Origin: Bilabrum cf. latius
Taxonomy: Eukaryota
Length of the DNA stretch: 64,000 nucleotides
Direction of reading: 5' to 3'
NCBI GenBank assembly: GCA_965178125.1
Contig: OZ237754.1
Location: 992,001-1,056,000 of the forward strand
Shown here: positions 16,809-61,952 of the stretch, piece by piece
Numbering within the stretch: position 1 is the first letter of the stretch
How the letters are laid out: each line of letters opens with the position of its first letter
Program-made: the position numbers and the translations under genes
Notes under the pieces: generated by a model
Database searches by the model: none
What the model was told of the DNA's origin: nothing
Seen by the model: the letters and a program-made list of their open reading frames with translations, nothing else

Positions 16809-17041
16809 TCATGTTTGGGCAGCTCCGCTCCCAGCCGCCGATTCCCCCGCGGCGCCCTCCCCCAGGCCGCCCTCCCCCGCACCGCGACCCGCCCGCAGCC
16901 TCGCATTCTCCCGAGCCAGGTCCGCGAGACGCGCCCGCAGCACTTGGTTCGCCAGCGCCGCTTCTTGGGCCACATCTCCCTCTCCAAGTGTCACCAGCCC
17001 GCCCCTCGCGAATCCACCCGGTCCCAGCCGGTGCACCAGCC

Positions 17042-17078
<37 letters not shown>

Positions 17079-22142: not shown

Positions 22143-22516
22143 GGTATGGCTGAACACACCGAGCTGAATCCAAAATTTGATGTATTACTGGACAGCCTCC
22201 AGGTGATCGAAAACAGAACCAGAATGAGAAAATCTCGACAATCCGTTGTGCAAGATATCAAAGAAAATTTTGGGTAAGTAGTACTACGAGATACTGCTGG
22301 TATATCGCAGCAGTCCACCGTTCGGTAGGACCTCGACGTTCTGGTTTTAAAATGTTTATAACGCGTGAATAGAACGTTCCGGGTTCGAAGTGCTCAGCAA
22401 GACTTTCCAGAGCTCACCACCGCCCGTGTACTTGTATTCGACCTGCATTGTGCCGGCAAATATATTGACAATCATCACACGTATCATCTGGTGCATTGCT
22501 TGCACTAATTGGTGTC

Positions 22517-24031: not shown

Positions 24032-24869
24032 TTACATGCTCATGCCCAAGCCCCTGCCCCGCATGCCCCATGCAACCACTCTGCGGTCCTCGCCTCCACT
24101 CACGCCGGCATCTGCCCCGCTCCACGCGCACGCCAGCAGCTTGGGTGGCGCCCTGCTGCCTAAAGCCTTGTCAGCCCCTGCCCCTGCCCCTGCCCCTGCC
24201 CCTGAGCCTGCCGATGCCGCGGCCTCGCCTGCTCTTGCTGCTGCCCCGGCGGTCTCCTCCCCGGGCCACCCATGCCGCAGCGCGTACAGCGGCGCGCGAG
24301 GGGCCCGCAGGTCCCACGCCCGGCACGCCCCATCGTGCGCCGCAGACAGAAGCAGGTGTCGGTCTGACGGGTGCCATGCCACCGAGCTAATCCACGGCAA
24401 GCCCTTGTGCCGAAGCACTACAGAGGCCCCCGCCTTGTCCGAGCCCGCGCCAGCCCTGTCCCTGGCATCGCCCGCCCTCGTGTCCCACACGCGGGCCGTC
24501 CCGTCCGAGTGGCTCGTGGCGAGCTGCTGGCCAGAGGGCCCGGGCGACAAGCCCGTCGGCGTCTTGCCCACGGCCACCCGCTGTCGCAGCGCCTCTGGAG
24601 GCACCGCTCGGGATCGAGACGCGGCGTCGCCCGAGGACCCCGCCCCCAGCAGCCTCTCCGTGTCCCAAAGACAGAGGCTACGGTCCCAGGAGCAAGTCGC
24701 GAGGACCGCGCCGGGCACTCCGAGGCCAGAGGACGCCCCGGCGCCGAAGGTGGCCCCACTCACGCACCCCCGGTGCATCTTGCCGAACCGGGCGGTGGGC
24801 TGCAGGACGGGGGCGGCGCTGCGCCGCCCCAGGGCCTTGCTAGGCTTGGCCCCTCCTACGCCGCCCGAT

Positions 24870-32055: not shown

Positions 32056-32502
32056 TCGTTCGAACAGTCGAGATTCTGCGTCGCTGCAAGTCTATGGTTA
32101 CTACCTGGCTCAGTAGTACCCATGCGACACCAATGGCTAGATTTCAGAACAGAAATCGGTTAGTTGGACTAGGAACCCCTAGACCTATTCCGGATCGATC
32201 GGATCCACGGAAGTAGATGCCTCACTGATTTCAAAGTTGGCGATGGGGGTCACCAGCTTGAAGCATTGTTCACCTTGCCCAAGAAGCAATTTACGCGATA
32301 CAAAAGCTGACTAGTTGGGTACTTTGGAGACGATATTTCATATTTCATTGTTGGCATCAGCCGTAGTACTGTTTGTGAGGGAATTATAGGACACATGTTG
32401 TATTCTGCTCTCTGAGCATTTCCAACGCACCTTTCAAAACCTGAGCCTGCTCAATCGTTGCAGGTCGTATAATTGGCGAACGGAATACCATACAGACAAA
32501 AC

Positions 32503-38500: not shown

Positions 38501-41500
38501 CCCCCACAAACACAGGGCCGATGATAAACAACATCACATTATCACACGAATTCCGAGAGAACCAAAACCACAGTCCTCGGATTTACGCTGGATTCAACTT
38601 AGCCGACTATGACGATGTGTCTGCGAGCGCGGTGGTGCAGATCGAGTCGGCGCTGGCGGGGGACGCGTTGGTGGTGGCTGGGGGTGCGGACGCTGACATG
38701 ACCGTGTCTGGGGATGGTCTGAGCGTGACTGTGTCTGAGGTGTCGCTGGCTGACCTGGCTGTGAAGCTGGGCAAGATCGGCTTCACGAACACGGCCGAGT
38801 ACACGTCGGCTCTGACTCGCAATGTGTCGGTGGTGGTGACGGACGGCGGGAGCCAGGGTCAGCTGCCGGGCGCGCGTCAGACGGCATCATCGGAGGTGCA
38901 GGTGGTGGTGACGCCGCTGAACGATGGCCCATTGATCGGCAGCTTCCAGCATGTGTACAACTTCACGGAAGGGTCGGGCGATGCGGCGGGTCTGTTTGTG
39001 GGCTTCAGTGTGAGTGATGCGGACGATGTGTCTGCGAGCGCGGTGGTGCAGATCGAGTCGGCGCTGGCGGGGGACGCGTTGGTGGTGGCTGGGGGTGCGG
39101 ACGCTGACATGACCGTGTCTGGTGATGGTCTGAGCGTGACTGTGTCTGAGGTGTCGCTGGCTGACCTGGCTGTGAAGCTGGGCAAGATCGGCTTTACATC
39201 ATCGGAAGACTTTCCATTTGATCTGACTCGCAATGTGTCGGTGGTGGTGACGGACGGCGGGAGCCAGGGTCAGCTGCCGGGCGCGCGTCAGACGGCATCA
39301 TCGGAGGTGCAGGTGCGGATCACGCGAACGAATGATCAGCTACATATAGGTACCTTCCAGCATGTGTACAACTTCACGGAAGGGTCGGGCGATGCGGCGG
39401 GTCTGTTTGTGGGCTTCAGTGTGAGTGATGCGGACGATGTGTCTGCGAGCGCGGTGGTGCAGATCGAGTCGGCGCTGGCGGGGGACGCGTTGGTGGTGGC
39501 TGGGGGTGCGGACGCTGACATGACCGTGTCTGGGGATGGTCTGATCGTGACTCTGTCTGAGGTGTCGCTGGCTGACCTGGCTGTGAAGCTGGGCAAGATC
39601 GGCTTCACGAACACGGCCGAGTACACGTCGGCTCTGACTCGCAATGTGTCGGTGGTGGTGACGGACGGCGGGAGCCAGGGTCAGCTGCCGGGCGCGCGTC
39701 AGACGGCATCATCGGAGGTGCAGGTGGTGGTGACGCCGCTGAATGATGGCCCATTGATCGGCAGCTTCCAGCATGTGTACAACTTCACGGAAGGGTCTGG
39801 GAACGTAGCAGCTCTGTTTGTGGGCTTCAGTGTGAGTGATGCGGACGATGTGTCTGCGAGCGCGGTGGTGCAGATCGAGTCGGCGCTGGCGGGGGACGCG
39901 TTGGTGGTGGCTGGGGGTGCGGACGCTGACATGACCGTGTCTGGGGATGGTCTGAGCGTGACTGTGTCTGAGGTGTCGCTGGCTGACCTGGCTGTGAAGC
40001 TGGGCAAGATCGGCTTCACGAACACGGCCGAGTACACGTCGGCTCTGACTCGCAATGTGTCGGTGGTGGTGACGGACGGCGGGAGCCAGGGTCAGCTGCC
40101 GGGCGCGCGTCAGACGGCATCATCGGAGGTGCAGGTGGTGGTGACGCCGCTGAACGATGGCCCATTGATCGGCAGCTTCCAGCATGTGTACAACTTCACG
40201 GAAGGGTCGGGCGATGCGGCGGGTCTGTTTGTGGGCTTCAGTGTGAGTGATGCGGACGATGTGTCTGCGAGCGCGGTGGTGCAGATCGAGTCGGCGCTGG
40301 CGGGGGACGCGTTGGTGGTGGCTGGGGGTGCGGACGCTGACATGACCGTGTCTGGTGATGGTCTGAGCGTGACTGTGTCTGAGGTGTCGCTGGCTGACCT
40401 GGCTGTGAAGCTGGGCAAGATCGGCTTCACGAACACGGCCGAGTACACGTCGGCTCTGACTCGCAATGTGTCGGTGGTGGTGACGGACGGCGGGAGCCAG
40501 GGTCAGCTGCCGGGCGCGCGTCAGACGGCATCATCGGAGGTGCAGGTGGTGGTGACGCCGCTGAACGATGGCCCATTGATCGGCAGCTTCCAGCATGTGT
40601 ACAACTTCACGGAAGGGTCGGGCGATGCGGCGGGTCTGTTTGTGGGCTTCAGTGTGAGTGATGCGGACGATGTGTCTGCGAGCGCGGTGGTGCAGATCGA
40701 GTCGGCGCTGGCGGGGGACGCGTTGGTGGTGGCTGGGGGTGCGGACGCTGACATGACCGTGTCTGGTGATGGTCTGAGCGTGACTGTGTCTGAGGTGTCG
40801 CTGGCTGACCTGGCTGTGAAGCTGGGCAAGATCGGCTTTACATCATCGGAAGACTTTCCATTTGATCTGACTCGCAATGTGTCGGTGGTGGTGACGGACG
40901 GCGGGAGCCAGGGTCAGCTGCCGGGCGCGCGTCAGACGGCATCATCGGAGGTGCAGGTGCGGATCACGCGAACGAATGATCAGCTACATATAGGTACCTT
41001 CCAGCATGTGTACAACTTCACGGAAGGGTCGGGCGATGCGGCGGGTCTGTTTGTGGGCTTCAGTGTGAGTGATGCGGACGATGTGTCTGCGAGCGCGGTG
41101 GTGCAGATCGAGTCGGCGCTGGCGGGGGACGCGTTGGTTTTGGCTGGGGGTGCGGACGCTGACATGACCGTGTCTGGGGATGGTCTGAGCGTGACTGTGT
41201 CTGAGGTGTCGCTGGCTGACCTGGCTGTGAAGCTGGGCAAGATCGGCTTCACGAACACGGCCGAGTACACGTCGGCTCTGACTCGCAATGTGTCGGTGGT
41301 GGTGACGGACGGCGGGAGCCAGGGTCAGCTGCCGGGCGCGCGTCAGACGGCATCATCGGAGGTGCAGGTGGTGGTGACGCCGCTGAACGATGGCCCATTG
41401 ATCGGCAGCTTCCAGCATGTGTACAACTTCACGGAAGGGTCGGGCGATGCGGCGGGTCTGTTTGTGGGCTTCAGTGTGAGTGATGCGGACGATGTGTCTG

Positions 41501-44500
41501 CGAGCGCGGTGGTGCAGATCGAGTCGGCGCTGGCGGGGGACGCGTTGGTGGTGGCTGGGGGTGCGGACGCTGACATGACCGTGTCTGGTGATGGTCTGAG
41601 CGTGACTGTGTCTGAGGTGTCGCTGGCTGACCTGGCTGTGAAGCTGGGCAAGATCGGCTTTACATCATCGGAAGACTTTCCATTTGATCTGACTCGCAAT
41701 GTGTCGGTGGTGGTGACGGACGGCGGGAGCCAGGGTCAGCTGCCGGGCGCGCGCCAGACGGCATCATCGGAGGTGCAGGTGCGGATCACGCGAACGAATG
41801 ATCAGCTACATATAGGTACCTTCCAGCATGTGTACAACTTCACGGAAGGGTCGGGCGATGCGGCGGGTCTGTTTGTGGGCTTCAGTGTGAGTGATGCGGA
41901 CGATGTGTCTGCGAGCGCGGTGGTGCAGATCGAGTCGGCGCTGGCGGGGGACGCGTTGGTAGTGGCTGGGGGTGCGGACGCTGACATGACCGTGTCTGGT
42001 GATGGTCTGAGCGTGACTGTGTCTGAGGTGTCGCTGGCTGACCTGGCTGTGAAGCTGGGCAAGATCGGCTTCACGAACACGGCCGAGTACACGTCGGCTC
42101 TGACTCGCAATGTGTCGGTGGTGGTGACGGACGGCGGGAGCCAGGGTCAGCTGCCGGGCGCGCGTCAGACGGCATCATCGGAGGTGCAGGTGGTGGTGAC
42201 GCCGCTGAACGATGGCCCATTGATCGGCAGCTTCCAGCATGTGTACAACTTCACGGAAGGGTCGGGCGATGCGGCGGGTCTGTTTGTGGGCTTCAGTGTG
42301 AGTGATGCGGACGATGTGTCTGCGAGCGCGGTGGTGCAGATCGAGTCGGCGCTGGCGGGGGACGCGTTGGTGGTGGCTGGGGGTGCGGACGCTGACATGA
42401 CCGTGTCTGGTGATGGTCTGAGCGTGACTGTGTCTGAGGTGTCCCTGGCTGACCTGGCTGTGAAGCTGGGCAAGATCGGCTTCACGAACACGGCCGAGTA
42501 CACGTCGGCTCTGACTCGCAATGTGTCGGTGGTGGTGACGGACGGCGGGAGCCAGGGTCAGCTGCCGGGCGCGCGTCAGACGGCATCATCGGAGGTGCAG
42601 GTAATTATAGCTCCACGACCAGATGCCCCACTTTTAGCAACGATTCAGCATGTTGTTCTATGGATGGAGAACCAAAAAATGGCCTTAGACGTTTTGGTTG
42701 GACTACGTGCACAGGACAATGACGATGTGTCTGCGAGCGCGGTGGTGCAGATCGAGTCGGCGCTGGCGGGGGACGCGTTGGTGGTGGCTGGGGGTGCGGA
42801 CGCTGACATGACCGTGTCTGGTGATGGTCTGAGCGTGACTGTGTCTGAGGTGTCGCTGGCTGACCTGGCTGTGAAGCTGGGCAAGATCGGCTTCACGAAC
42901 ACGGCCGAGTACACGTCGGCTCTGACTCGCAATGTGTCGGTGGTGGTGACGGACGGCGGGAGCCAGGGTCAGCTGCCGGGCGCGCGTCAGACGGCATCAT
43001 CGGAGGTGCAGGTGGTGGTGACGCCGCTGAACGATGGCCCATTGATCGGCAGCTTCCAGCATGTGTACAACTTCACGGAAGGGTCGGGCGATGCGGCGGG
43101 TCTGTTTGTGGGCTTCAGTGTGAGTGATGCGGACGATGTGTCTGCGAGCGCGGTGGTGCAGATCGAGTCGGCGCTGGCGGGGGACGCGTTGGTTTTGGCT
43201 GGGGGTGCGGACGCTGACATGACCGTGTCTGGTGATGGTCTGAGCGTGACTGTGTCTGAGGTGTCGCTGGCTGACCTGGCTGTGAAGCTGGGCAAGATCG
43301 GCTTCACGAACACGGCCGAGTACACGTCGGCTCTGACTCGCAATGTGTCGGTGGTGGTGACGGACGGCGGGAGCCAGGGTCAGCTGCCGGGCGCGCGTCA
43401 GACGGCATCATCGGAGGTGCAGGTGCGGATCACGCGAACGAATGATCAGCTACATATAGGTACCTTCCAGCATGTGTACAACTTCACGGAAGGGTCGGGC
43501 GATGCGGCGGGTCTGTTTGTGGGCTTCAGTGTGAGTGATGCGGACGATGTGTCTGCGAGCGCGGTGGTGCAGATCGAGTCGGCGCTGGCGGGGGATGCGT
43601 TGGTAGTGGCTGGGAGTGCGGACGCTGACATGACCGTGTCTGGTGATGGTCTGAGCGTGACTGTGTCTGAGGTGTCGCTGGCTGACCTGGCTGTGAAGCT
43701 GGGCAAGATCGGCTTCACGAACACGGCCGAGTACACGTCGGCTCTGACTCGCAATGTGTCGGTGGTGGTGACGGACGGCGGGAGCCAGGGTCAGCTGCCG
43801 GGCGCGCGTCAGACGGCATCATCGGAGGTGCAGGTGGTGGTGACGCCGCTGAACGATGGCCCATTGATCGGCAGCTTCCAGCATGTGTACAACTTCACGG
43901 AAGGGTCGGGCGATGCGGCGGGTCTGTTTGTGGGCTTCAGTGTGAGTGATGCGGACGATGTGTCTGCGAGCGCGGTGGTGCAGATCGAGTCGGCGCTGGC
44001 GGGGGACGCGTTGGTGGTGGCTGGGGGTGCGGACGCTGACATGACCGTGTCTGGTGATGGTCTGAGCGTGACTGTGTCTGAGGTGTCGCTGGCTGACCTG
44101 GCTGTGAAGCTGGGCAAGATCGGCTTCACGAACACGGCCGAGTACACGTCGGCTCTGACTCGCAATGTGTCGGTGGTGGTGACGGACGGCGGGAGCCAGG
44201 GTCAGCTGCCGGGCGCGCGTCAGACGGCATCATCGGAGGTGCAGGTGGTGGTGACGCCGCTGAACGATGGCCCATTGATCGGCAGCTTCCAGCATGTGTA
44301 CAACTTCACGGAAGGGTCTGGGCACGTAGCAGCTCTGTTTGTGGGCTTCAGTGTGAGTGATGCGGACGATGTGTCTGCGAGCGCGGTGGTGCAGATCGAG
44401 TCGGCGCTGGCGGGGGACGCGTTGGTGGTGGCTGGGAGTGCGGACGCTGACATGACCGTGTCTGGTGATGGTCTGAGCGTGACTGTGTCTGAGGTGTCGC

Positions 44501-47500
44501 TGGCTGACCTGGCTGTGAAGCTGGGCAAGATCGGCTTCACGAACACGGCCGAGTACACGTCGGCTCTGACTCGCAATGTGTCGGTGGTGGTGACGGACGG
44601 CGGGAGCCAGGGTCAGCTGCCGAGCGCGCGTCAGACGGGATCACCAGAATATCTTACTGTTTCCCTTCAGACTGATCTGGTGCCTGCTGGGGATCCGCCG
44701 GAAATCGTAGCTGGAATCGAGGTGGATCATGTATCCATTGATTTTTGTGACTCAAGCATATCATTTTCAGCTGCTTCGAGTGCCGTGATAACTAGAGCAA
44801 GCGGTTTTGGCCTTGTCTTTGAGTGGGCCGTGCACGTCTCTGCTGGATCCCCCAGCATTGGTAGTGTGGAGTTCGTCAGCTCTCTGGCAGCCCTCAATGA
44901 CAGGCTTCGCGCGCTTGCAAGGGATTCCCAGTTTGCCCGCTTGAGCGAGATTGAATTTTAGCTGGCGGATATAGCGCAGGCGTCAAAGCTGAACTCTAGG
45001 GCTGGTGCTAGAGAACCACTATATTTGCCCAGAGCCAGCCTGGGTGACAGCATGGAAGTCGAGGTGATGGTGCGAGCTAGAGATGCAACTATTCAATTGC
45101 CAGACATCAAGTTGAATGCCGACACAACGGGCAACGATGTGGCGTTGTCCTCTGTGCTGTCTGTTGGAGCTCCACGCGCCCAAGTGTTCCCCCCGGATGC
45201 CCACTCGGTCATGAGTACTAGGACCACCAAGCTGTCGCTCGGTCCCCAGGTACGGCTGTGCGGTAGAGCCTCAGCCGGCGACGCTGCTGTGGCTGGGTTT
45301 CAGTGGCAAGTGGTGGCATCGGTATCAGATCCTACTCTGAATGAGGCGCCTGCGAGTGCTGTGGACGCAGTGGGCGCCGCACTACTCGCCAGAGATGTGG
45401 TTGGCACGAACCGAACGGTTGTCAATCTTGTCGCTGGTGGCCAACTAGGGGGTCTGATTGCGTCAGAGCCCGCCCGCTCTGGTCTGAATGGCGGTCCTTT
45501 CGTTGGGTTTGATCTAGGGATCGGGCAGCAGGTTGTACTAGATAGCGTACTGAGGGGAAGTGGGGATGTGGTGACGCACGAGCTGGAAGGAACCCCGTGG
45601 TTTGACGCACTCTCTTACACATCGACCTCTCCAGGCAGTTCTCGGCTAAACGTTCCGGAAGGGGCACTCAGGTCCGGGCACGCATATATTCTGGCCGTTC
45701 GAGTCGATGTTCTAGTGCGCACAAGCAGCAACGGAACGCTAGCACCGCTTTCCGGTCCTGCTCTCGGGCTGACTTCTAGCTGCAGCCTTGTTGGCGTCGG
45801 GATTCGCCGCAATCAGCTGCAGCTGTAGATCGATGGGGGGGACAGAACCGTGTCGCAGGACCTCGGATTTACCATCGGTATCGGTAGCGGTAGAGTAGCA
45901 GGCTTCGACTCTGACTTCGACTCGAGCGGGGCATTCCTAGACCCAGGGTACGATCCAGGCTAGGACCGACCAGCCACTTTGTTTACGTGGGGCTGCGATG
46001 CGACACCGTATGGGTCTGCTGGCTCTAGTAGCACTCCGTGCCTTGATCTGGTTCCTGGTGCTGGTAGCCAAACCTCTGTGTCGGCCGTGACCATCAGCCC
46101 CGAGGATGCTGCGCCGTACGGCGGTAATGTTCTTAGGCTTCAGGTGAATGTGACCTCCGGGCTGTCCATGGGCAGTAGTGCCAGTAGTGCCCGACTGTTG
46201 TCCCGAGGCATGCAGGCTATGTCGATTCCAGACCCAGCCACAGTACGAGAAGGCTCTGTGACTGCCCTCGTGATTGTTGCGCCAACGGGTCTGCCTGCCC
46301 TCGAGATCGCCACCAGCAGGACACGATTCAGTCGACTGGCATCCAGTGGCGGAAATCTGATTGTGTCATCCTAGCAGCGGCTGGTACTTGATGCGGTGAT
46401 CAACCAGGTGACCCCTCAGAATGCATCCTTTTCTTTGGCGGAAGATGGCCTGTCGGTGTCATGGGTGCAGGTGGAGGGACCGGCAGTTCCAGGAGTACCG
46501 AGAGAGGCACAAACGGACCCATAGCCGGGACAGTCAGCCGTAGTCACCTCACTTGCCGCCCGCAGTCTGGTACTGCGCCAGGGTGTGCTGCAGCCCGGCG
46601 AGCAGTACAGCTTCCGGGCGGTGGTCTCGTTGGTTGGGCAGCCGGTGTCTCCGCTGACCACCTCAAGCGCAGAGGTGGCCGTGCAGGTGAACATGCCGCC
46701 AGTGCCTGGGACTGTCACGGTTAAACTCAACCCAGACGCCGAGCCAGCTCTTCCGCCGAGCACTGGTCGTTGGGCAAACCTTCCACGTGCGCTCGTCGAC
46801 ACGCTGTCCATCGAGACGACTGGGTGGATGGACGACCCTGAAGACCTGCCACTGAAGCACTCCTTCTTTGTTGACCCCACGGGCACTGTGCAGCCTCCGC
46901 GCGGAGCGGTCACCCCTTCACAACTGCAGGCGATGCTGACTGCTCCTAGCGTGCAGGCCCTGAGAGGAGACGAATTGAGCCCTTAGCTCGAAGCGATAAT
47001 GCCAGTTGGCAACACGAGCTCCAGAAAAGCGGTCAACATGACTTTGATTGTCGTGGCCACTGATCTGGCGGGCGGGCAGGGTGTGGCGGCGGTCAATGTT
47101 CAAATTGCGCCCGCATTAGACAGCAGGCAGGCCCTGAACGCCTCCATAATTTCCGCAGCAGCTGCCTCTCAATTGAAGAACGCTGCAGCTGCTGCTGCGT
47201 CCTCTAACCTTGCCGCTGCTCTTCTCCTCGTCGGTTCCACGACGAGCCTGCTAGCCGAGCTCCCTGCTCAGAACGGGACCAATTCCTCGACGTCGCCCAG
47301 CGATGCCCTCAGAACCCAAGTGCTTGATCTGCTGGCATTCCTGGCTGCGAATGCCGAGCCAACCTCTGCAAACATGCAGCTGCTGGCGTCAGCTGCTTAG
47401 GCGGCACTCTCAGACCCCAGTCAGGTTTCATCTGATCAGCTCGATACTGCTCTCTCCGTAGTGACGACCATTCTCGAGAACCGGCTCTCTGCAGGAAGTG

Positions 47501-50500
47501 ACTTTGGGTCGCTGGAGGACGGGCCTTCTGTGTCTATCCTTGGCGCTATGCGCGCTGCATCGGACGCCGGATAGTTTCTCATGACACCGACGGGGATTCG
47601 CGGCGGCAGCTAGGTGGCCAAGCAGTCCAACCTGTTGGGCCGGGCTATGCTGGCAGGATCAATCCCGGGAGAAGACCAGCGAGAGCTGCAAGTCAGCGGC
47701 ACTTCCGGTGGGTTCCAGCTGGCCATGGCCGTGGGCCGCCTCAACATCTTAGATGCAGTAGGCGGCAGCCAGTCACCGCAGGTGCAGGAGGGGGGTGCGT
47801 CTGTCCTCGGTCTGATTGCAGCCGGTGACTCGGACCCCGCAGAGATGGCGGCAATCGCGCGCAGGTATTGCAGCGGCTCTGCGACGGACTTCGATACTAC
47901 TGGTGTGGACGATTCGCCGAGCATGAAGGGCGGTGCGTTTGGCGTTGCACTTGTGGATGCCGCTGCAACTATCCGTCAGCGAGCGCTACAAACAGGCAAC
48001 ACGGATCTTCTCCAGGGTGTGGATGCGACTGCGATGGAATGGGGAGGAGGTGCTAACACCGCTGCGTCTCCTTTCTCCACCGACACAGCCGGGGTCGGCG
48101 ATGCGTTGGGCATTCCTGTCGGGGAGCAGAACGCCACCCAGGGTGCGGTCAGCCCGCCAGGCTAGAACAGTCTAGTGGAGTCGAACCGGACAGTGAAGCG
48201 CACCACAGAGACGCTGAGGGGAGAACAGGGCTCCACTGTGAGCGTGGATCTGACATCGTCAGCGAGCGGGACTTCGGTAGGATTCGAGGCCTAGGACCTG
48301 GAAGCATGCGTGTTCGTGCCCAAGCCAGCGAGCCCGGAGGTCCCTGAGCAATACACAAACTAGTTCGTTCCGATCGTCACACTATCGGGCGATGACTCGT
48401 CAGGCATCCCGCAGCCGAACAGCACGGACCTATCTGCGGTCGACTTACCTCTGACGTGCGATGAGATTAGGGCAGTGAACCAGTCAGGGCCTCCGCAGGA
48501 ACAAGTATTCGAGTCTGAGTCCCTGTCGCAGGTGGCTGCCTGCATCTACTGGAACGAGGAGGAGGAGCGCTGGCAAGGAGATGGGTGCCAGGCCGTTGCC
48601 TTCTTGCCCACCGGTACTGTGTGCCGGTGCAACCACCTGACCGACTTCGCGTCTCGGGTAGAGCTGCTACTGGCCTCGAATAGAGAGGTGTTCTCGGTTG
48701 GTGTGCAGCCTATCTAGCTTGCTGATGTGCTGGCCAACCCCGAAACGTTCATCGCCATCGGGGCAATTTGCCTCTTCATACTACTGTCGGCGTTCGGTAC
48801 TCTATGCATTGAGGAGCGGGACAGGGTACGATTCGCCCGCAAGCTGATCAAGGACCCAGAGGTGGCCGTGGTGCGCGACATGGCCCGTCTGGAGGGATCG
48901 AGCGAGCTGCTTGGCACTGCACTGAGGGACTACCGCAAGACGGTGCAAGACGAGGGTGCTAGCTCTGAGTTACGGAACGAGTCGCAGGCGCAACTCGAGA
49001 TGGCTGTGCAGGCCTCCCTGCAAGCGCTGCAGTCCGTTGCACACCCGCAACTTGGATCAATGCCGTCATGGTCTCTTGTTGCACCCTCGCCAACGAAGGG
49101 TGCCAGCAAAACGGGCAAGAACAGAAATCTACCTTCTCTCCCTTAGTTCGAGGAGAAACTCGCCACAACCCGCGCCTTCTTTCGGATCGAAACGGAGGCC
49201 CGTGTGGCTGAAATGGCAGAAAGACGGGCCATGGACCACGCGTGTAGGTGCTGCTTTGATCTCTTTTGCAGCGCGTCCGACTTGCTGAAGCACTCGTCTA
49301 GGGCAAAAACGAAGACAAGCAGCAGCGGCATGTGCGGATCCTGCTGCGATGCCTCTTCTTCCGAAGAAATATCTGCCATCGGCAACGAGCTCGGTCGGGC
49401 CTTCCGCGGTATTGGTTGGGATGATGATGAATCTCTCGCGGATACTTCTTCCAAAACGAGTGAACGCAGCCGCCGTCGGAACTCCATGGCATCAGCTGAA
49501 GAGCAACTGCACCGCAGCCGAGCGAGATTCACGACTTCAGCAGGAAGGGAAAGGAGCAGGGCGCGGCGTAACTCCCTTCCTGCATCGGTACCCAGTACAT
49601 CACTACTGTCTACTAAGGCAATAACAATCCCGGAGTAGGGTTCAAAGGTGCCTGCGTCACACACGATTGAACTTAGCCACATGAACCCTTGCTACCGCGG
49701 CTGGGTGCTTCGTATGGATGTGCTGCGGCTGTGCTTGGCCAAGCTACCCTACGAGCTCGAGCTGTTCCAGGCTTTCTGTAGGTTCAATTACCAGCAGGAC
49801 CGTATGATGCGTCTGGGTCAGCTCATGGCTGTGCTCTTCTCCGGTATGTTTGCCACGGCCTTCTTCTACAGCGTGTCCGGGGCGGATGCTGCAGGCATTG
49901 ACGAAGACTGCGATGGCGAGGATGACTTTTCCAACGTGCCACTGTGGCAGCAGCTCATCTTCTCGGTCATGGCCTCCATCCTGCAGGCCCCTGTAAGCCT
50001 GACCCTCACCGTGCTATTTGACCGGGCCGGCGAGGCGTGTTTCGTTGCTCGATACTTCCCGATCTGGCGAGAGCTGGAGATTCGTCATGCTGCGGAGGTT
50101 CGGTTGGGGTCCAAGGTAGGCGGATTGAGGATGAAGCTATTGGTGCTTCAGGCATCCTTAGCCAACTGGCTTGAGACGACCGACAAAAATGTGGCCAGCC
50201 ATGACGTTGAATAGCTTCGATTCGTCGGTGATCTCCTCGGAGACGAAAAGTCCGAAGCATTGGTGCAGCAGGTGCTGAAAGGCAGGAAGGAGCGAGATAG
50301 AAAGAGGCTAGCAAACTCCCATCCTGAGTTGCTGCCCATGGCAAGTCGGAATGCTTCCTCCGAGGAAGGAGAATCGATGATTGGCAAGGAAGCCACGGTC
50401 GCTTCAGATCTCACTATTTGGCGGGAGCCACTTGAAGGTGCACCGAGCGCTAGCGTTGTGCAAGCCCGTGCCTACGCTACTGGGCTTCGCTTGCAAGTCA

Positions 50501-52863
50501 TCCGAGCTGTTCGTGACCTCGGTGACTTCATGGCGCAGCAGAGCCGGTCTGAGGTGAGCTGCATGGAATATGCGTGGTCTTGGAGGTGCTTTGACCTGTG
50601 CTGCTGCTGCTGCATGGGCGAGCGACAGGCAGTGGAGCAAGAGCATCAGCGTCGGATTGCCGTGCTCTGCGCCCGTCTGCTGCTAGTAGTCGACCATGCT
50701 GGTGAATCGAAGTACGCCAAGAGCGAGAGGTGCGCAATGGCGAACCGGGCGCTAGCAGCGCTGCAGAACCAGCCTACTGGCCCGGTGACTGCTGAAATGC
50801 TGCGGCCAGTCGTAGACCTGCCCGCCCTCTTTAACCCAGTTGCTCTTGGTTGGCGCCCGCCTCCCACATGCTGTCGCCGCTATTGCCACTGCCTCGTGCG
50901 GTGCTGCAACCGAGACGATGATTAGCAGCCGATGTTTCTGGTCCAGCAGATGGCAGCTGATGGCCGGCCGTATGGGTGCTGCCACGCCCGGCAAGATCCC
51001 CGAGATGACTCAACGGGCGACTGGGTGGATGAAGTCGAGAAGGAGGAGAAAGAGCATGGCGTGATTCCAGGCGCTGCTAACGCCTTGGCCGGCAACAGTT
51101 CAAGCTTGAGGGCACGTGTTACGTGCGCCAGCCCTGTCATGCCAGCTCCCGTACCTCCCACTTGTCCCGATGGCAGCCTGTCGTCCCCTGTACGAGTGGG
51201 GTGCGAGCTTCGACAACCCCACGAGGAAGAGGTGCACTGTCAACTGTGCGACTGTTTCGATTGCGGCCCCCTAGATCCCTTCCGCTGCGTGTGCTCTGTC
51301 GTCAGCCCAGGCATGCGAGGCACTGTGGATCTTCAGGACGATCAAGCAGCATCTAGGGCAGCAGAGCTCAAATTGGCTCTCCAGGTGGCCGCTTCAAGGA
51401 AGCTCTCCGCATTGAAAGGAGCTGGCAGTGCGTCCTCGTCCGGAGAGGAGGATCTCGGCCTCCCAGCTGGTAGCCAGCTAGAGCAGGAGCCAACGGACGA
51501 CGCCAGCGTCCAACTGGATGGGATTCAGCTCGGCCTCATTGCCGAAGAATCCAAGCAATCAATGCGCGGCAGTGATCTCGGTGAGGAACAGCCTTCTGGT
51601 ACCGCGCTGCACATGTCTCCAGCTCAAGATGCGAGGCTCAGCGCAATGATCCCAGGCTTTGACGACATGCCGGAAGCTGAGAAGTTGGAATACAGACAGG
51701 CATTTTCGATTGTTAGGCGTGGGACCCGCCGCTCACGGGAATAGTCGCAGTCGAGCCAACAGCCCGTCGCCACGCCGCATGGTCCGTCCCTCCACGACTT
51801 GCTTAAGGAGACGATGGAAGACGAGGGCATGCAGGCTGCCGTCCGGGGTACCATTTTGCGAGAGAAAGGCTCATGGAGCGCCGCAGTCACCGAGTCTGTG
51901 ATTTCCTTCGCTCTGCTTGCCCTCGCCCTCGCCTTCATCCTGTGGTTTATCCTGGCCTTCGGTCTTACCAGGGGCAGGGCGGTGATTTCGTCGTTTATGG
52001 TGACCTTCTGGGTGTCCCAAGCATTCACGTTCTTTGTGAGCTAGCCGTTGGTCATGCTTGGCTTTCTCATCTGGGCGGTCTCGTTCGCGCCCACGCTGGA
52101 GCGCTACATGAGCTGGATCCCGTGGTGCGGCACTGTAGGCGAGGCTGCTATTCTCAAAGAGAAGTAGGTCCTCACTGGGCGCATGCAGCACGTGGCCATG
52201 CTCCATGCTGTCGGGGCCACTGCGGGCTTCGCGGCCAAAGACAGTTTGCTGGTATTCTCGGTGTCATCGGCGCTGACATCTGCCTTGATCAAACAGTTCG
52301 ACAAGCCGGAAGGTAGAGTGGATCTGGACAGCGAGAGAGGCGAGGGCAGAGTAAGTCTCGCCATGCACGGCTTCATCGCAGAGTCCAAGAATGTCCCTGA
52401 GGATAGCCAAGGAGTCACCAAGGCAGCCGATGAGCGAGACGGCCCTGAGGCTCAAGAGAAGGCCCGCAAGCAGCGCGAAAAGAGGCAGAAAGAGGTGTTC
52501 AGGACCATGGAGCACCGGCTGCACGGCCTGTTACTGCGGGAGTTTGCCAGACTGCGGTTCAAGCTGGCCGTGGACGGAGTCCAGAGAGCGATCGACGGCA
52601 TCGTGAAGGCTGTCTCTGAGGCTTAGCATTCCCTGGGTGCTCTGGAGGCGGACAGGATGGAGGGATCTGCAGCTGGTGCATATGGTGCAGAAAGTACCGG
52701 CCATTCCATGACCCAAGCGAGTCGCCTATCTGCAACAAAGACGCGCGCTCAGATGGTGAAGCGGGTGCTCGCAGATGTTGTCCGCACGCAGAGGGGCCGA
52801 CTGCATCCGGAGGTGCAACAGGCCCTGAATGACATTGCGCCGGGCAATCCGGTGGATGAATGA
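32503..52863 (+). CDS. Giant (~6,786 aa) PKD1/REJ-like membrane protein: signal peptide, ELWxxDGT-like region, ~20 cadherin/Ig-like repeats, REJ-like region, GPS motif, several TM helices; 27 in-frame TAG, no in-frame TAA/TGA
   Basis: All + strand ORFs from 32473 to 52863 in this frame are separated only by TAG. Signal peptide MFVSTVATLTVLVPLASA. GPS motif CIYWNEEEERWQGDGC...CRCNHLTDF at ~48541-48650 followed by TM FIAIGAICLFILLSAFGTL. REJ-like VNMPPVPGT and GWMDDPEDLPL. Ends TGA. Confidence 0.88.
38611..44637 (+). repeat. Coding tandem array of 15 near-identical 411-bp (137-aa) units, the last one partial
   Basis: GACGATGTGTCTGCGAGCGCGG recurs every 411 bp: 38611, 39022 ... 42721 ... 44365. 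Confidence 0.97.
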
Positions 52864-54247: not shown

Positions 54248-56392
54248 ATGAAGTTGCATCCTGCTGCATGGTTAGCAGCGGCATTGTGCGCTGCATCAAC
54301 AGTAAGATCGTTCCGTCCGAGTGGGAGCCAGAGCGCGTCATATATAAGCTTACCGGCGGAGATGAAGCAACTTCTGATGCACTCACGCCGCAGTGTGCGC
54401 ATGCATCATCTGCTATTCTAGGCGTAGAGTTTGGTGGGGTCATGGCATTTGCAGACCAGTGGACAAGCACTAAAGCTCCGAAGACATTGAACGGGTCAGG
54501 CGCAGCACCTGTTGACAATCATGGGTGGCCTATGAGCGACTTTTTTCAAGTAAGAATGGAATATCATTGAGCGCAATAACCGCGACTGTTTTCTGTTAAC
54601 TTGGAGTTGGCCTACTACCTGACTTCGGACGCCGGTTCAAGCAGGTGGTGTTCGATCTGCGGCCATCCTTCGCGTGGGCCCCACCAGAGGTGAGAAATGA
54701 ATGAGAACAAGTACGGCGCGAGACGTGCATCAAATTCATACCAATTTGTCGTTTTTATGATCCGATGCAAGACGCAGGATGACCCCCAGCACATCGGGGA
54801 GTGGACCGCTGGCGTGTGGCAGATGCGCTTCCAGGGACTCGCCAACGTGAGCTGCATCGTGGACCCGAACGCGGGCTGCGCCTGGCAGTTCAGCGAGCTC
54901 TCTTACGAGGAGGACACGAACTGGTCCTACCTCAACCTGACCATGCCATCGGAGAAGTGGCACCCGGAGCTGAACCTGATGCTGCTCAACTTCACCGACA
55001 CCAGGCGCAACCTCACCGCGCCCCTGGGCTCGGGCATCAGCAACATCAGCCTCATCATCCCGAACCACACGTTTGCCGATGCTGACATCCACACGGGCCA
55101 GTTCTTCTCCAACAACCTCATCACGGCCATCAAGAGCATCAAGGCCTGCAAACACGCCCGATTCATGGGCGCACTGCACACCAACTACAAGTCTGGATTC
55201 TACGGTGAGTCTGCGACCCCTTTCGCTTCCGATTGGGCGTATCCATGCAAGCAAATGCATTGTAACTGACACTACTCTGCTTCGTTTCACACCAATGCTG
55301 TCACACGCAGGTGATCCGGGCCATCACATCATCGAGTGGTACCAGCGGCACACTCCTGCCGATGCCAGCCGGAAATACAGTGCTCGCGACAACCCGTAGG
55401 GCGGTGGCATATCATGGGAGGCGATCGCTAAGTATGCCAGCACCTTTGGGCAGGACGTCTGGGTGAACCTGCCAGTGGGCGCCTCTTCTGCCTGCATGCC
55501 GGTGCCACAGGGTAGCAGCTGCTGGAGCGGCAACAGCAGCTCCTACGTCTCTCAGGCGGCCAAGCTTCTCCACGACCAGCTGCCCAAGGACTCGGCCGTG
55601 TACATAGAGCACTCCAACGAGGTCTGGAACTTCGGATTCTCCCAATACACGTACAACAAGCTCAACGCGCTGGACGTTTGCAAGACCACCAGTAACAAGG
55701 ACGCCATCTGCAGCGTGCCCTGCCCATCCAAGAAAGATCCCAATAGCACGCTGCCCTGCAATAACCAAGAGGTGCTCGGCCAGCGCAGGCACCTGCAGCG
55801 GCTCTATGAGAGCGTTCGGGAGTTCGCGGTTATCTTTGGCGAGAGTGAGATCAACAACCGAATCAGAGGCATCTACGCCGAGTGGAGCCGCTTCCCGCAG
55901 CACTACAACGACACACTCACTTGGTTTGAGACGGCTTACGGCAAGGGGGCGGCTGCCAAGTACTTGTGGGGTGTCGCGGCCACTGCCTACTTCAACTACA
56001 ACCAGACCGCTGCTGGCCCCAAGACCCTGCCCAGCAAGGCTCCCGTGGACGACATCGTGAAGGGGTACAGCCTCACGGCCAACAACGTGTCGCTGGACGA
56101 AGTTGAGATCGCCGCTGTCGGCAAGGCCTTTGGTCTCAAGATGACATCGTACGAGGCAGGACCCGGCATGAAGGTCGGCACCAAGACTGACCTCAGCAAC
56201 GTGCTGCTGGCACACGCTAACGAGGGCATGCACCAGGTCATGCTGGACTGGTACAAGACCTACGGGGAGGTCTTTGATATCCTTCACCAGTTCTCTCTGG
56301 CTGGGTACTGGAGTAGGTACGGGGCTTGGGGTGCCACGCGCATCCTGAGCGATACTGACGGGCCCAAGTTCAGCGCGCTCAAGGAGATGTGA
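54248..56392 (+). CDS. Secreted glycoside-hydrolase-like protein (clan GH-A-like TIM barrel); exons 54248-54301, 54394-54549, 54645-54689, 54778-55204, 55311-56392; TAG 55397-55399
   Basis: Signal peptide MKLHPAAWLAAALCAAST|CAHA; VDNHGWP, ARFMG, ISWEAIAKYA...DVWVNLP, VYIEHSNEVWN (candidate acid/base) and TSYEAG (candidate nucleophile). Four GT-AG introns restore the frame. Confidence 0.75.
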
Positions 56393-56516: not shown

Positions 56517-59500
56517 TCAGTTCTCGGTAGTGCACATGGAGCACACCTTGGGCGCGCCTTCTCTGGTCTTGTTCTCGAACGTGCATGCTATGCAGTTCCA
56601 TGTGACCAGGGGTGCATTGGCGCGCGCGCCCCCGCCCCCCCTACCGATCCGCACTCCCGTCTCCCGGGGCTGAGATCCTCCGGACCCGCGAGAGCCTGTC
56701 TCCCAGGGTTTGCGACGGCGGCCACTCGCCGATCCACCTGCAGGCTTGCCCTTGCCTGCAGCAGCCTTTGCAGGCCCTCCCTCGGCCACCCACTGCTTGA
56801 ACTCCGCCTCTGACCGCACCATCACGGTGAGGCCATCCCTCAGGCCCAGGGCGGCCAGGATGGGGTCTTCCTGTGCGCTAGAGTCAGGATCGTGCCACTT
56901 GAGCTCGTGGGCTGTGCGGCCGCTTGGCTTAGGACCGTACCCCGCCACTTTGGCCAGTCCAACTCCCTGCCACACCTTGGCATCGCCGTCAGCTGTAGCA
57001 GCACCTGCCCGCCCTGCAGCACCTCCGGCTGACTCTCCAGCGCTACTCGCGGCGGCCGCAGCAGGAGAGGCTCCCGCATCATCTGTCTGCAAAGCGGCAC
57101 CCGCAGGCCCTGAATCTGCGGGCCCTGATCCCTCCGTGGGGTCGTTGCCCCCTTCAGCCTCCACGGGCACCTTTAGCTTGCGCGCCGCCAGTTCCTTAAG
57201 TTGCAGAATGGGCATTTTCTTGGGCACAATAACCTCCACGGGGGGGTTCAGCCGCATGGCGAGAGGCCGCCACCGCTGCAGCGAGATGATCATGTCGTGC
57301 GGGCCCACTTCCTCCGCCTCGGGGAGCAGCTGCACGCACAGCTCCAAGCCGTCCTCGAGCCTCCGGACCTCGTTTTTGAGAGGGCGGGCATCCCGTAAGA
57401 TCTTGCCGGGGCCCTCCCTCTGCTTCTTTTCCCGGAGCCGAATGCGGTTGGTCGGCAGCGATATGCCTCTCGACTCGAGCGCTGCGCATATCTTGCGCTT
57501 TAGCTGCCGCACCGGGGCCGTGGACTTGGCTGGAAGCTCGCACAGTCGGTGAAAGCGGGTGCCCGCTCCGCCCTTCTTGCGGCCCGCAGTACCGCCGCCC
57601 CGCCCACGCAGCACGGGTCGCTACCCAGGCATGCGGGGCCCAGCACCTGGCGGGGGCGATGGTGAAGTGCCCTCGCTCGCTTCTGTCGCAGCCCCGGAGG
57701 CGCTCGAAGCAGGCGAGCCGCGCCCCGCGGAAGCTGTCTCGCTGCCATCCTGGGAGTTGTGCGAGCCAGCTTCTGCGGGCTCAGCTGCTGTGCGACCCTG
57801 CTGCTTGCGCTTCCACTCCTCGACCGAAGTGCCCAGTAGGAATATCTTGCTGCGGTACTCGTCAGCCGCCATCTGCACCCCAAAGCACACATGCACGATG
57901 GATCTATCCACCAAACACAGGCCATCCCTGCGTTTGCCCCCCGTCTCTGCCGCCCTCATGTTCTGCCTCCTCAGCACGTCCACTGGGTCTCCCACGATCT
58001 GCTCCAGGTCCTTCACCACGGCCCCACGCACGCTGCGGCGCAAGTAAAAGTCGTCTGGATCTGCCCCAATCTGCGCTCCCACGGCCTCTTTCAGGGCCCG
58101 AACTGTGTCGGTGCGGCGCACGGTGACGGACCGGGAGTAGTCGGGGGGCGGTAACAGGTCCTCCCCGCCCGCCGCAGCCACTAGCTCAGGATCCACAGGC
58201 TCGTTGAAGCTGATTGCGATGGACGCGCGCTCAGCGTCGAACCTATCCTTGAAGGTAGCATGTACCACCTCCGCATCCTCCGATGGAGATGGAGGGGCGC
58301 TGGGTGCATCTGCCCCGGTGGGCGAGTCGTCCTCGAGCACAACGGTGCATCCAGAGTACGCGCCGAACTCCCTGCGCAGGTCAGCTTCCGCATCGCCCAC
58401 CAGCCGCACCAGAACGTCGCCGTCCAGCAGCCACACCTTCCTGCCTGGTTTGGCCAGCCCCAGCCCCGGTACCCTCTTCTGCCCCGCCTCGGAGGCGAGC
58501 GCGTCCAGCAGTCGGTCCAGGTCGCCCAGCTGGGCACCGTCACCTCCCAGCCGCACGCCCACCTGCGGCATGGCGGCCAGGCTCTCCTCCAGGGACACAG
58601 CGGGGGCCTGCTCCTCACCGCAAGCAGCTCCAGATCCAGACGCGGCAACCTCAGCGACCTTGCGCGCAGGATCCTTGTCCGGCATGTAGCGCACCACCCG
58701 CAGCACCACGTCGTCCTTCGAATAGGGGGCCCAGCGCCTGTCCGCGGGTCGCAGCTCGAGGAACAGATCCGTGGCACCCGAGACTCCAATCCATGACAAG
58801 GGGCACTGCAAGGGGCCGGCAGGCATGGAGGCACCACCACGGGCAGCCACTTCCCCGCCCGACCCACCGCTGGCCGCCCCCTCCTTGGTCTTAGTCTTGT
58901 CCGTCTCTTCCTCTTCTTGTGCCCTACGTCTCTCCGCAAGTCGGTCCAGCTCGCGGGCAGCTACACTCGTCAGGGGCTCCTGCGGCACGCCCGCCGCACT
59001 GTTGAAGCGGCGCAGGCGCACCCTCCAAGCGTCTGGGTCGGCTTCGGCACTGCTGCCCTCCGGTGGCACCAGAGCCAGCAATGCTGCAGCGGCCTTGGCT
59101 CGGTCTTCCCCGATGCCTGCCACGTCTTCACCCGCCTCCCGCAGCGCGTTCAGCAGGCCCTCTAGGTCGGCAACCGGTGTTTCCTTCCCTGCTGCATCGG
59201 CGCCTTCCGCAGACTCCCCGCTCTTCTCGGATAGCCCGCTGCCCACCGCGGCGACAGCTTGTCTAGTTGCCTCCGCCAGGGAGCTCCCCCGCCATATGTC
59301 GGCCTGGGCTGCAGCCAGGGCGGAATCATGACTCGGGCCATCATTGTCGGAAGCAAGGCTGGCTTGCACAGCCCCCCCGCCGGCGATCGAAGCCTCCAGC
59401 AGTTTCTCCTCGGGGCTGGCGGCTGCCACGGGCGAGTCCCCACCTGCACCACCCCCTGCCGCTTCAGATGCGGGGCGTAGTCTCTCGCCACCACTCTGCG

Positions 59501-61523
59501 CTCCTGGCCCCCTCACCCTCACCTGCGCGATGGCCCTCCTCACCCGGCTGGCTCGCAGCAGCTTCTCGTACACCCCGTTGAAGCCCTCGATCGCCTCTCG
59601 GACGGGCCCGGGTGGCACGGGCTCCACCAGAGTGGCGGCACAAGCCTCTGTGCCCCTCGCCTCCGATGCCTCCTCGGAGGCGGGCGGGGCGTCCTACGAT
59701 GCATCTTGGGCGCAGCGCACGTACAGGAGCAGGTACGCGTTACCTGCTGGCCCCCCAGTCTATTCTGGTTTCTCTGGTGTATGACTTTTGTTTGGCTTGG
59801 CCTAGTCGTCCTCAACCTGATCTCCTGTATCCTACTCGGTCTCGACTCCAACCGATTGCCCAGGGTCCGCTGCGTCCTCTTGCATCTTACCGGATTCGCC
59901 AAGACTATCCCCCTTGTCATCCGCGCCTTCTGAATCCACTTTTTTGCCATCCGTGCCTTTCCCATCCTCCTATTGCCCATCCGAGTCTCCGGCTACCTCC
60001 GACGAATTGAGATCCATTGCTCGTAGGAGTGCCTGCAGGTCAGGACCCCTCAGTGGCTTGACGTGGGCGTCGTTGCATTCGAACCACTCCCCTGCCCGCT
60101 TCTTCTCATCTGTCTCCGCTTCCCACACGCGGGCCGTACCGCCGCCGTCCTCCTCATCCACCGCCACATCTTTCCAGCGACCCTGCGGCAGCCTGGTACC
60201 CGCTGCCGCCCCCGGACACACGTACATGAAGTAGTGCCCTCCCCCCGCCGAGCCCACGTGGATGAGCACAGCGTACAGGCGGTACACGCCAGACCTGTGT
60301 CCCTCTTCGCCGGATTTGAGGGAGCCATGCGTGGTGAGGGGCGCGGATGGCACCTCGGGCCCGGTGCCCTCCACTCTCTTCTCCTGCTTGGCCTTGGCCC
60401 TGGCCTGCTCCCTGTCTGTTTCCTTCTTCTCGGCTGCTTCGTCCCCATCTCTTTCTTCCTCCTTGTCCTCCTCATCCTCCTCCGACGTGAGGGCAGAACC
60501 CATATCCAACACCTCCGGGAATCGGAATGACTGCTGCAGCTTGACCCTCCGCATCACCTGCAGGTCGTACACGAACCGCTTCAGATGCATGCACAGCATG
60601 GGGGGCAGAGCGACCAGGCTCATGCCCTTGCGGGCAGTCCTCTTGCGCCCGCACGAGTCGCAGTGCCAGCCCTCGATGCTCTCGGATCGACCAGAGGCGC
60701 GGATGGACTCCACTAGGGAAGGAACTCCGCTCACGGGCAGCTCCAGGTCGATGAACGGCTGGCGCGTGGCTCTCCTGTACCCGCACCCCTCATGCGTGCA
60801 CGCGATGTGGTCGGACGAGTACCCGCGCAACAAGTCCCACACCAAGTGCTCGCGCAAATAGGCGGACAGTGTGGCACGAGTGCCCTGCGCCGCCCTTAGT
60901 GCGACTTCCTCGCCCGCCTCCACGCTGTCCTCGGACGGCAGTGGGCGTGGGGCGGCCGACTCGCTGCCAATGGTGGGGTCAGAGGCACCTTCGCGGTCCG
61001 GCGCGGGCAAATCCTGCTCTCCTGCGGCCTGCTGCAGGCGGGAGCGGGTCTGTGTGTAACTGTTTTCCATGGCCTCCAGCAACAAGTGCAGCAGCTCCTG
61101 CACGTCGTGCTGCTTGAACGCATCAGCTCCTCCCCACCCGAAGGCTTCCGTAAGGCCACCCGTGGTCTGAGCTGGGGCGCGGGAAAGCTGCATGCCAGCA
61201 AAGAGGGCCTGCAGCTGGGCTGGAATAGCAGATAATTCCTAGGCAGCGGCAGACTCGCCTGGGTCATTCCGCCACTCGTACACGCGTTTCCTGAAGTCTG
61301 GGGAGTGAAACAATGCCTGCACCAGCGAGTTCAGGTAGCAAGTCGCGCCCTAATTCACCAAGCCACTGAGCCCATGCGATGGTTTTTCAGCAAAAAACTG
61401 TGATCCGCGCGTTTTGATTGCAGATTCCAAAGCAGGCCTAACAGAGTGCAGAAGCTTCAAGTCTTCCTCAGAAGGCGGTCTCAATTCGAAGTCTTGGTCC
61501 CGCGCGTCAATGGAACCCGACAT
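56517..61523 (-). CDS. Ubiquitin-specific protease (USP47/USP40/USP7-like) with probable UBL regions and a C-terminal RanBP2/NZF zinc finger; 7 in-frame TAG
   Basis: Cys box GLVN*GATCYLNSLVQ, FGW...QHDVQEL, LCMHLKRF, His box YAVLIHVGSAGGGHY, WFECNDAHV, NAYLLLYVR; WNCIACTFEN...CSMC then TGA. Confidence 0.92.
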
Positions 61524-61952
61524 ATGATTCCTATAGGGGGGTTTATAGAAATACCGCAATAATTGACGCCTGCGGGTTGAAACATTGGTGCGATAGGTCG
61601 AGCATGGTGTGAAAAAAGCGTGGGATCCATCCGCAGGCTTCAGAGAGGGGCCCCGAGGCTGTGCATTGCAATGAGTGCGCCATTATTTGCATGCATCGGT
61701 GATTCAAATTGCTAGAACACTGTCTCACACCAAACAGGCACCAGTTCAAAGCAAGGACGGACTGAGTGGATCGATAGTTTGCATAACGTTCTTGAAAACT
61801 CGGATCCACCTATAGGTAGTACCGTGCACATTGCCATAGCACTGCCAACCGAGTCAACTAAGCGTGAATGAGGCTACCCCACGGACCCTCGTGGCATGAC
61901 GTCGCACTGCATGTCTGGAGCAGCTCTCAAGGGCCAATGCAATCCCCCCAGG

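Follow-up and report, generated by a model that had tools for sequence, protein, structure and literature searches.

In-frame UAG codons in a USP47-like deubiquitinase gene of Bilabrum cf. latius and in the genes around it: a sense codon that most probably specifies glutamine

In a stretch of 64,000 nucleotides from Bilabrum cf. latius (contig OZ237754.1, positions 992,001 to 1,056,000), to which we refer throughout as the window, we observe a gene for a USP47-like deubiquitinase that carries an in-frame TAG inside the box holding its catalytic cysteine, and we conclude, with good confidence, that UAG is here a sense codon most probably read as glutamine, that UAA and UGA are the stop codons, and that codon 58 of this gene, the TAG in question, belongs to a working enzyme. 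The two parts of this reading do not stand equally firm. UAG is a sense codon in the genome from which the window comes, and UAA and UGA remain stops, which we regard as virtually certain; that this sense codon encodes glutamine we consider very likely. The TAG at codon 58 had been singled out, in an earlier note made from the sequence alone (hereafter the original prediction), as the best single-site evidence from homology for glutamine, and within the 64 kb it is indeed the best such site, although it is also one symptom of a genome-wide property.

The coding sequence of the USP47-like gene occupies positions 56517..61523 of the window on the minus strand, from an ATG at 61523 to a TGA at 56517-56519, and these ends give 1,668 codons plus the TGA stop, in agreement with the 1,668 amino acids previously put forward for the enzyme. 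Standard stops cut this frame into nine pieces. With TAG taken as sense, it forms part of a single open reading frame (ORF) of 1721 codons (56517..61682) with eight TAGs and no TAA or TGA, and the chance of a frame of 1721 codons without TAA or TGA is 4.6e-13, given the window's own frequencies of the TAA and TGA trinucleotides. The Pfam profiles UCH (7.3e-39, 134 bits against a cut-off of 23.9) and UCH_1 (3.3e-9) match the predicted protein, as does, barely above its cut-off, the profile USP47_C (PF19718; 2.5e-6, 27.7 bits against 27), a domain shared by the nearest homologues. Its top relatives among proteins of solved structure are USP47 (6.7e-23) and then USP7, and the nearest database proteins are 33-37% identical to it over the catalytic domain.

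Examination of the Cys box (61326..61364, minus strand), which aligns to the Cys boxes of USP47 and USP7, demonstrated that the minus strand reads GGC TTG GTG AAT TAG GGC GCG ACT TGC TAC CTG AAC TCG from 61364 to 61326, i.e., GLVN-TAG-GATCYLNS. Our re-reading places the TAG (61350..61352, minus strand) at codon 58, directly after the oxyanion-hole Asn and, as originally predicted, four codons before the catalytic Cys (codon 62). The marks of the USP family in this protein are the Cys box with its oxyanion-hole Asn before the catalytic Cys, a His box (GGGHYFMYV, 60219..60245) and the profile match; the His box and an ECNDAHV stretch on its 3′ side (60060..60080) both lie inside the Pfam UCH match, and a motif search located the QHDVQEL box of the USP fold at 61092..61112 (all on the minus strand). 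The NQ motif originally given for USP7 and USP47 is present in the solved chains, which read glknqgatcymn in USP7 and glvnqamtcyln in USP47, and the downstream FGW...QHDVQEL block, on which the assignment of the protein to the group of USP7, USP40 and USP47 had been based, aligns in these chains as well (fgw...qhdvqel). With USP47 and USP7 (peptidase family C19), the window protein shares the Cys box N-Q-G/A-x-T-C-Y, the FGW...QHDVQEL block, the His box and the USP47_C domain, with the provision that at the Gln after the oxyanion-hole Asn, a mark of this group, the codon in the window is TAG, and Q is therefore predicted at this place rather than observed as a residue. Unlike USP47 and USP7, the window protein has long acidic and Ala/Gly-rich inserts and eight UAG codons.

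The seven further TAGs, all on the minus strand, are found at codon 95 (61239..61241), in a variable acidic loop, at codons 518, 564, 574, 588 and 610 (59694..59972), in and beside an acidic insert of the catalytic domain, and at codon 1301 (57621..57623), upstream of the USP47_C domain. The description of the enzyme as otherwise intact therefore needs a proviso, in that it is correct if these seven TAGs are also read through and incorrect if they are not. The TAG at codon 58 is not a lesion. It is scarcely credible that this codon reflects a pseudogene or an assembly error, or that it is removed by editing or splicing, since such a view has in its favor the bare presence of a stop-like codon, whereas the long frames of the window are interrupted by TAG alone, never by TAA or TGA, a frame of this kind has the very small chance probability given above, the catalytic Cys and His boxes were both found by motif search, and independent sequencing runs agree on the letters concerned. 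Logan contigs of four runs from three studies (X1, X5, X6 and X7) cover 61350-61352 with identical letters and with no other letter in any of them, and no variant at 10% or above is listed in these contigs anywhere in the USP gene.

These contigs also bear on splicing. The X1 contig is unbroken across 56363-61900. Contig 10 of X5 (5,241 nucleotides) covers 56357-61568 and resumes directly at 61728-61756, so that 159 nucleotides are missing from it, and we class the missing segment as a GT..AG intron of 159 nucleotides in the 5′ untranslated region of the USP gene (61570..61728, minus strand; GTGAGA...CGCAG), which ends 46 nucleotides upstream of the ATG and is present in X1 but absent from the X5 contig. 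The X5 contig, while lacking this intron, retains all eight TAGs with every other letter unchanged; it looks like a spliced message keeping all eight UAGs, so that the message appears to keep the UAG of codon 58, and removal of this codon by splicing finds no counterpart here. Two features count against taking the contig as a message, namely that only 29 letters of it lie beyond the joint and that the run is labelled ‘RNA? (probably DNA)’; X5, X6 and X7 are guessed to be RNA, with no run recorded as RNA, and the other end of the X5 contig is a branch point common to all runs and hence not a transcript end. Between the USP gene and its neighbor, linked variants occur at 56345, 56353 and 56356 (C>T, T>C and T>C) in the X1, X5 and X6 contigs, and the contigs of all runs break near 56345-56356, a pattern consistent with two haplotypes or with a repeat.

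Our survey of the other genes in the window, taken here as part of a eukaryotic nuclear genome, which has a G+C content of about 60%, few introns (of the GT..AG type) and genes on both strands, and whose sequence is carried by runs labelled as algal, protist or marine plankton, demonstrated that in-frame TAGs are a general feature. Ten ORFs, trimmed at the 5′ end wherever the start is uncertain, make up a coding set whose 15,822 codons include 63 TAG, no TAA and no TGA, next to 501 CAG, 102 CAA, 727 GAG and 217 GAA; if TAA shared the meaning of TAG, about 13 TAA codons would be expected at the CAA:CAG ratio of 102:501. Across five long ORFs we count 65 TAGs and no TAA within the coding part, and all five end in TGA. 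For example, a giant ORF that encodes REJ and GPS domains as well as repeats of 137 residues (32473..52863, plus strand) runs for 6,796 codons with 27 in-frame TAGs and no TAA or TGA inside, and the ORFs at 1978..7596 (minus strand, 1,872 codons), 16809..22184 (minus strand, 1,791 codons) and 27887..31999 (plus strand, 1,370 codons) contain 18 in-frame TAGs, three of them in one GAG run, 7 and 5, respectively. A mitochondrial carrier gene (7972..9114, minus strand) has a single in-frame TAG at 8734-8736 (RVIP-TAG-ASLNF). TGA ends the USP, mitochondrial carrier, CDC14-like, RNF113-like and E2 genes, and TAA ends an ADP/ATP-carrier gene (10707..10709, plus strand, after a last exon without TAG) and a conserved WDR12/Ytm1-like gene (24032..24034, minus strand).

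Coding continues downstream of these TAGs, as the USP catalytic core, the USP47_C domain and the carrier repeats each lie 3′ of one. This, together with the composition around the TAGs, bears on whether UAG retains a stop function as well, through context-dependent termination or programmed read-through. Genes that end at UAG would escape notice in our analysis, in which the ends of ORFs are defined by TAA and TGA, and to that extent there is room for such a dual role. However, 69 in-frame TAGs in nine ORFs have no common downstream context: the base following TAG is G in 29, C in 17, A in 12 and T in 11, which follows the pattern of ordinary first-base usage (0.44 G, 0.23 C, 0.20 A and 0.14 T) and thus gives no sign of a read-through motif or signal. 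In addition, the in-frame density of TAG, 63 in 15,822 codons (0.40%), is near its frequency over all frames (0.65%), so that TAG is not avoided as a stop would be, and a system in which all three stops are context-dependent is at odds with TAG being the only one found in frame. We therefore hold a remaining stop function to be most unlikely. From what is established for codes of this type, UAG would be decoded by a tRNA with anticodon CUA charged with glutamine, in the presence of an eRF1 that has lost recognition of UAG. ARAGORN and Rfam identified no tRNA gene in the 64-kb window, which is a point against our reading; Rfam likewise identified no RNA family in the window, and the window ORFs scanned gave no Pfam match to eRF1.

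The meaning of the codon can be read from sites where homologous proteins are constrained, and UAG is aligned with Gln at both of the informative sites (n = 2), i.e., the USP Cys box and the mitochondrial carrier compared with a close orthologue. For the first, the search for USP homologues was run with X at the TAG, so that it was not biased towards Q or any other residue, and 120 of its 130 matches were listed. In the 113 of these 120 listed homologues that have the Cys-box pattern, the residue at the TAG position is Q in 92, L in 9, A in 6, H and M in 2 each, and E and S in 1 each; the 7 listed homologues that do not match the pattern include USP47 proteins reading NQAMTCY. The 9 homologues with Leu, e.g., USP48-like proteins, bear out the original claim of Leu at this position in other USP subfamilies. 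Among the closest homologues, where consistent Leu or Glu would have spoken for a different meaning, a MAFFT alignment has Q at this site in all 30 of the 30 best matches. Translation as glutamine gives the Cys box GLVNQGATCYLNS, which is found throughout the USP47/USP7 group, and the UAG at codon 58 of this working USP47-type deubiquitinase is most probably translated as Gln. X1, X5 and X7 also contain another contig, which differs from the window at 3 positions over 61317-61351, and from its loose end we infer that a paralogous USP of the same organism has CAG, preceded by AAC, at the homologous codon. A metagenome scan with the USP domain returned only two distant loci, L001 (44%) and L002 (28%), of which L001 is an AT-rich USP47-like gene with a 1,203-codon ORF that contains no TAG and reads NQGATCY.

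For the second site, a full HMMER search of 1.84 billion representatives identified a protein of 303 residues, P0122, with 95% identity to the window carrier (E 4e-180). The two differ by 13 substitutions and at the TAG position, with insertions and deletions in one loop only. The 40 residues that flank the TAG on either side are the same in both proteins, and at this place P0122 reads RVIPQASLNF and thus has Q at the carrier's only TAG. In the 62 of 150 matches that contain the motif, this place is occupied by T (14), N (11), Y (10), E (7), S (5), A (4), H (3), V (3) and, once each, by Q, G, D, K and L; the sole Q is that of P0122, which makes Q specific to the close relative and not a habit of the family. 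P0122 begins at an internal Met and is without the N-terminal segment (LVAPLARIKILLQV) that precedes this Met in the window's protein, as expected from a standard-code gene caller if an upstream UAG cut the frame, and this suggests that its Q is a real CAR codon; if, however, its DNA was translated with TAG as Q, P0122 is not independent evidence, and this possibility has to be set against our reading. Scans of genome contigs and of viral contigs with P0122 found no relative. At codon 586 of the ORF at 1978..7596, TAG stands in place of one CAG in a nine-unit CAG-GRN repeat.

Other sites say little on the choice between Gln and Glu, and that only two sites in 64 kb inform this choice is itself a weakness of the glutamine reading. 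The TAG site of the RNF113-like gene has N in human and K in yeast, and the sites of the WDR12-like gene have H, H and S at one and F at the other, so that both genes are uninformative here; for four TAGs in diverged copies of the giant protein's 137-residue repeat, the aligned columns are variable and likewise uninformative. The homologue search with the E2 exon gave no match, that with the WDR12-like protein gave 1 match, with candidates swamped by low-complexity words, and self-comparison of the window identified no duplicate covering a TAG.

The strongest case for a different meaning, glutamate, with which the Cys box would read GLVNEGATCYLNS, comes from the neighborhoods of the TAGs, and the following observations weigh against glutamine. 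A naive context model built on residues −3 to +3 in the same ORFs, with the near-identical repeats of the giant gene excluded, gives the 20 residues a ranking for the 63 TAG sites in which E is first (+7.4), D second, K third, Q seventh (−9.6), L 10th and Y 19th, whereas hold-out sets of 63 true Q sites rank Q 1st to 5th. The summed log-ratio of Q minus E over the 63 sites is −17.0, which lies outside the 95% ranges of resampled CAG (−0.6 to 28) and CAA (−14.7 to 13.5) and inside that of GAG (−32.7 to 0.9). Mean counts of E, D and Q among the three neighbors on either side are 0.70, 0.52 and 0.27 for TAG, and in this TAG resembles the Glu codons (0.67, 0.44 and 0.23) and not the Gln codons (0.40, 0.30 and 0.43). 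USP codon 95 aligns with E in 13 of the 30 nearest homologues, with D in 8, A in 4, T in 2 and H, P and R in 1 each, and with Q in none, although this is a poorly aligned loop; the TAG of the E2 motif FC-TAG-LFPE corresponds to E in human UBE2J2 and to L in yeast Ubc6; and one natural USP, P0034, has the Cys box NEGATCYLNS, the only E among the 113 homologues, demonstrating that Glu can occur here. TAGs also lie inside GAG runs, e.g., at codons 813-817 of the ORF at 1978..7596 (5158-5172, minus strand), where GAA TAG TAG GAG GAG TAG GAG GAG GAG places three TAGs in one run.

The Glu-like context signal comes mainly from this GAG run and rests on about ten sites in acidic tracts: by site, 29 of the 63 favor Q and 34 favor E, with a median of −0.03. 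GAG is the commonest codon that a single change separates from TAG. A new TAG is tolerated in unconstrained, disordered tracts whatever it means, so that the neighbors record the codon from which it arose and not its meaning, and we accordingly read the Glu-like context as a trace of mutational origin in unconstrained acidic tracts. Constrained sites do speak to meaning, and since both of them say Gln we weigh Gln above Glu: at the one strongly constrained site, the Cys box, E occurs in 0 of the 30 nearest homologues, and P0122 has Q, not E, at the carrier TAG. The TAG in place of a CAG in the CAG-GRN repeat argues in the same direction, and a code in which UAA and UAG both mean Glu is further opposed by the lack of in-frame TAA in the coding set and by the two conserved genes that end in TAA. 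We thus regard glutamate as unlikely, and the original assignment of UAG to Gln as probable, being backed by the homologues and by P0122, while less settled than was originally implied, given the lean of the 63 TAG contexts. We consider it similarly improbable that in a eukaryote outside the ciliates, with both UAA and UGA retained as stops, UAG stands for Glu, or partly for Gln and partly for Glu; if that were so, the Glu-like neighborhoods would reflect meaning, the Q of the Cys box would be a tolerated replacement and the Q of P0122 an artefact of translation. The titles and abstract openings covered by our literature search include no code of this description.

The same data bear on whether UAG encodes yet another residue, such as Leu, Tyr or Lys, or is decoded ambiguously. 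Some support may be drawn from L being the second commonest residue at the Cys-box position, from Y at the TAG place in 10 of the 62 motif-bearing carrier matches and from K as third in the context model. However, L, Y and K occur in 0 of the 30 nearest USP homologues, P0122 has Q, the low ranks of L and Y in the context model give neither of them support, and neither Leu nor Tyr is a plausible reading of TAG in runs such as EE-TAG-TAG-EE-TAG-EEEE. We judge such an assignment very unlikely, and retain glutamine as the most probable meaning.

With this meaning, the code of the window is a known kind of code, that of the Iotanema type, as UAG is found in frame in conserved genes and UAA and UGA are never in frame and are used at gene ends. 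The nuclear code of Iotanema spirale (Fornicata) has UAG as Gln and UAA and UGA as stops, and codes that reassign UAG but leave UAA as a stop were not documented before 2017 (PMC5304391). Shared with the window are the reassignment of UAG alone, the ending of genes by UAA and UGA, and the fact that Gln was inferred; in contrast, I. spirale is an anaerobic metamonad known from its transcriptome (PMC5304391), and the window is a genomic stretch of 60% G+C with marine, algal and protist run labels, in which most genes end in TGA, not TAA. In the phyllopharyngean ciliates Hartmannula sinica and Trochilia petrani, UAG is putatively Gln and UAA is the preferred stop (PMC11687900), so that the reassignment of UAG alone to Gln is again shared; these are ciliates, whereas the 64-kb window spans multiple genes that lie on both strands, with GT..AG introns and mostly TGA ends. 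UAG as Leu is described for the rhizarian exLh and for an uncultivated phyllopharyngean lineage (PMC5304391, PMC11687900), which have in common with the window that UAG is sense and UAA is kept as a stop, but Leu fits neither the nearest USPs (0 of 30), nor P0122, nor the acidic contexts of the window.

Codes with glutamate are also represented among known systems. In one ciliate, UAG reportedly means Glu. UAA and UAG differ in that ciliate (PMC10553269), and Blastocrithidia nonstop has UAR as Glu (PMC12153298). These codes share with the window a UAR codon read as a polar or acidic residue, and the context statistics of the window do resemble Glu; Blastocrithidia, however, reassigns UAA and UGA too, and the window has neither in frame (0 of 15,822 codons). 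Our literature search identified no published account tied to the code of the window's organism.

The genes in which TAG is lacking are of interest in their own right. No TAG is present in the ADP/ATP-carrier (last exon), CDC14-like, second WD40 and hydrolase-like genes, which suggests that conserved genes, or those with high expression, avoid TAG. The ADP/ATP-carrier gene has at least two exons (9137-9676 and 9849-10709, plus strand), and the protein atlas assigned its product to ‘Eukaryota’ and to no narrower group. The hydrolase-like gene (54694-56392, plus strand), which includes the ORF at 54980..56392, has one TAG (DNP-TAG-GGGISWE) and gave no match in Pfam, NCBIfam or the solved structures; it seems to be divided between two frames, perhaps because an intron lies near 55270-55290. 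The E2 gene is of the tail-anchored UBE2J/Ubc6 type (25838-26939, plus strand, at least two exons), and of the 5 TAGs in its last exon, three fall in a stretch of 12 codons (FNVS-TAG-SP-TAG-KSTFC-TAG-LFPE). In the giant ORF, the REJ and GPS domains lie near the C-terminal third, and hmmsearch aligned 22 copies of the 137-residue repeat, of which the later copies are nearly identical and without TAG and the earlier ones are diverged. The 3′ end of the ORF at 27887..31999 (31677-32055) is duplicated past the giant gene at 53619-53988 (90.8% identity over 380 nucleotides), and a perfect tandem duplication of 78 nucleotides is present at 53038-53115 and 53116-53193. At the edge of the window, an exon of IFT52 (63578-64000, plus strand; GIFT domain, 4.9e-30) points to flagella, and the organism therefore probably builds cilia or flagella.

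A standard-code annotation of this organism would break most of its long genes, the USP gene alone falling into its nine pieces, and database proteins from the organism would consequently be fragments, as P0122 appears to be. The USP Cys-box site, which is one site of a genome-wide property, offers a clean marker for mass spectrometry. Reassignment of UAG alone is known from few lineages, and the pattern described here occurs in a G+C-rich genome with mostly TGA gene ends, a setting unlike those of the cases with which we compared it; each new case bears on how UAA and UAG, along with the release factor reading them, can become separated.

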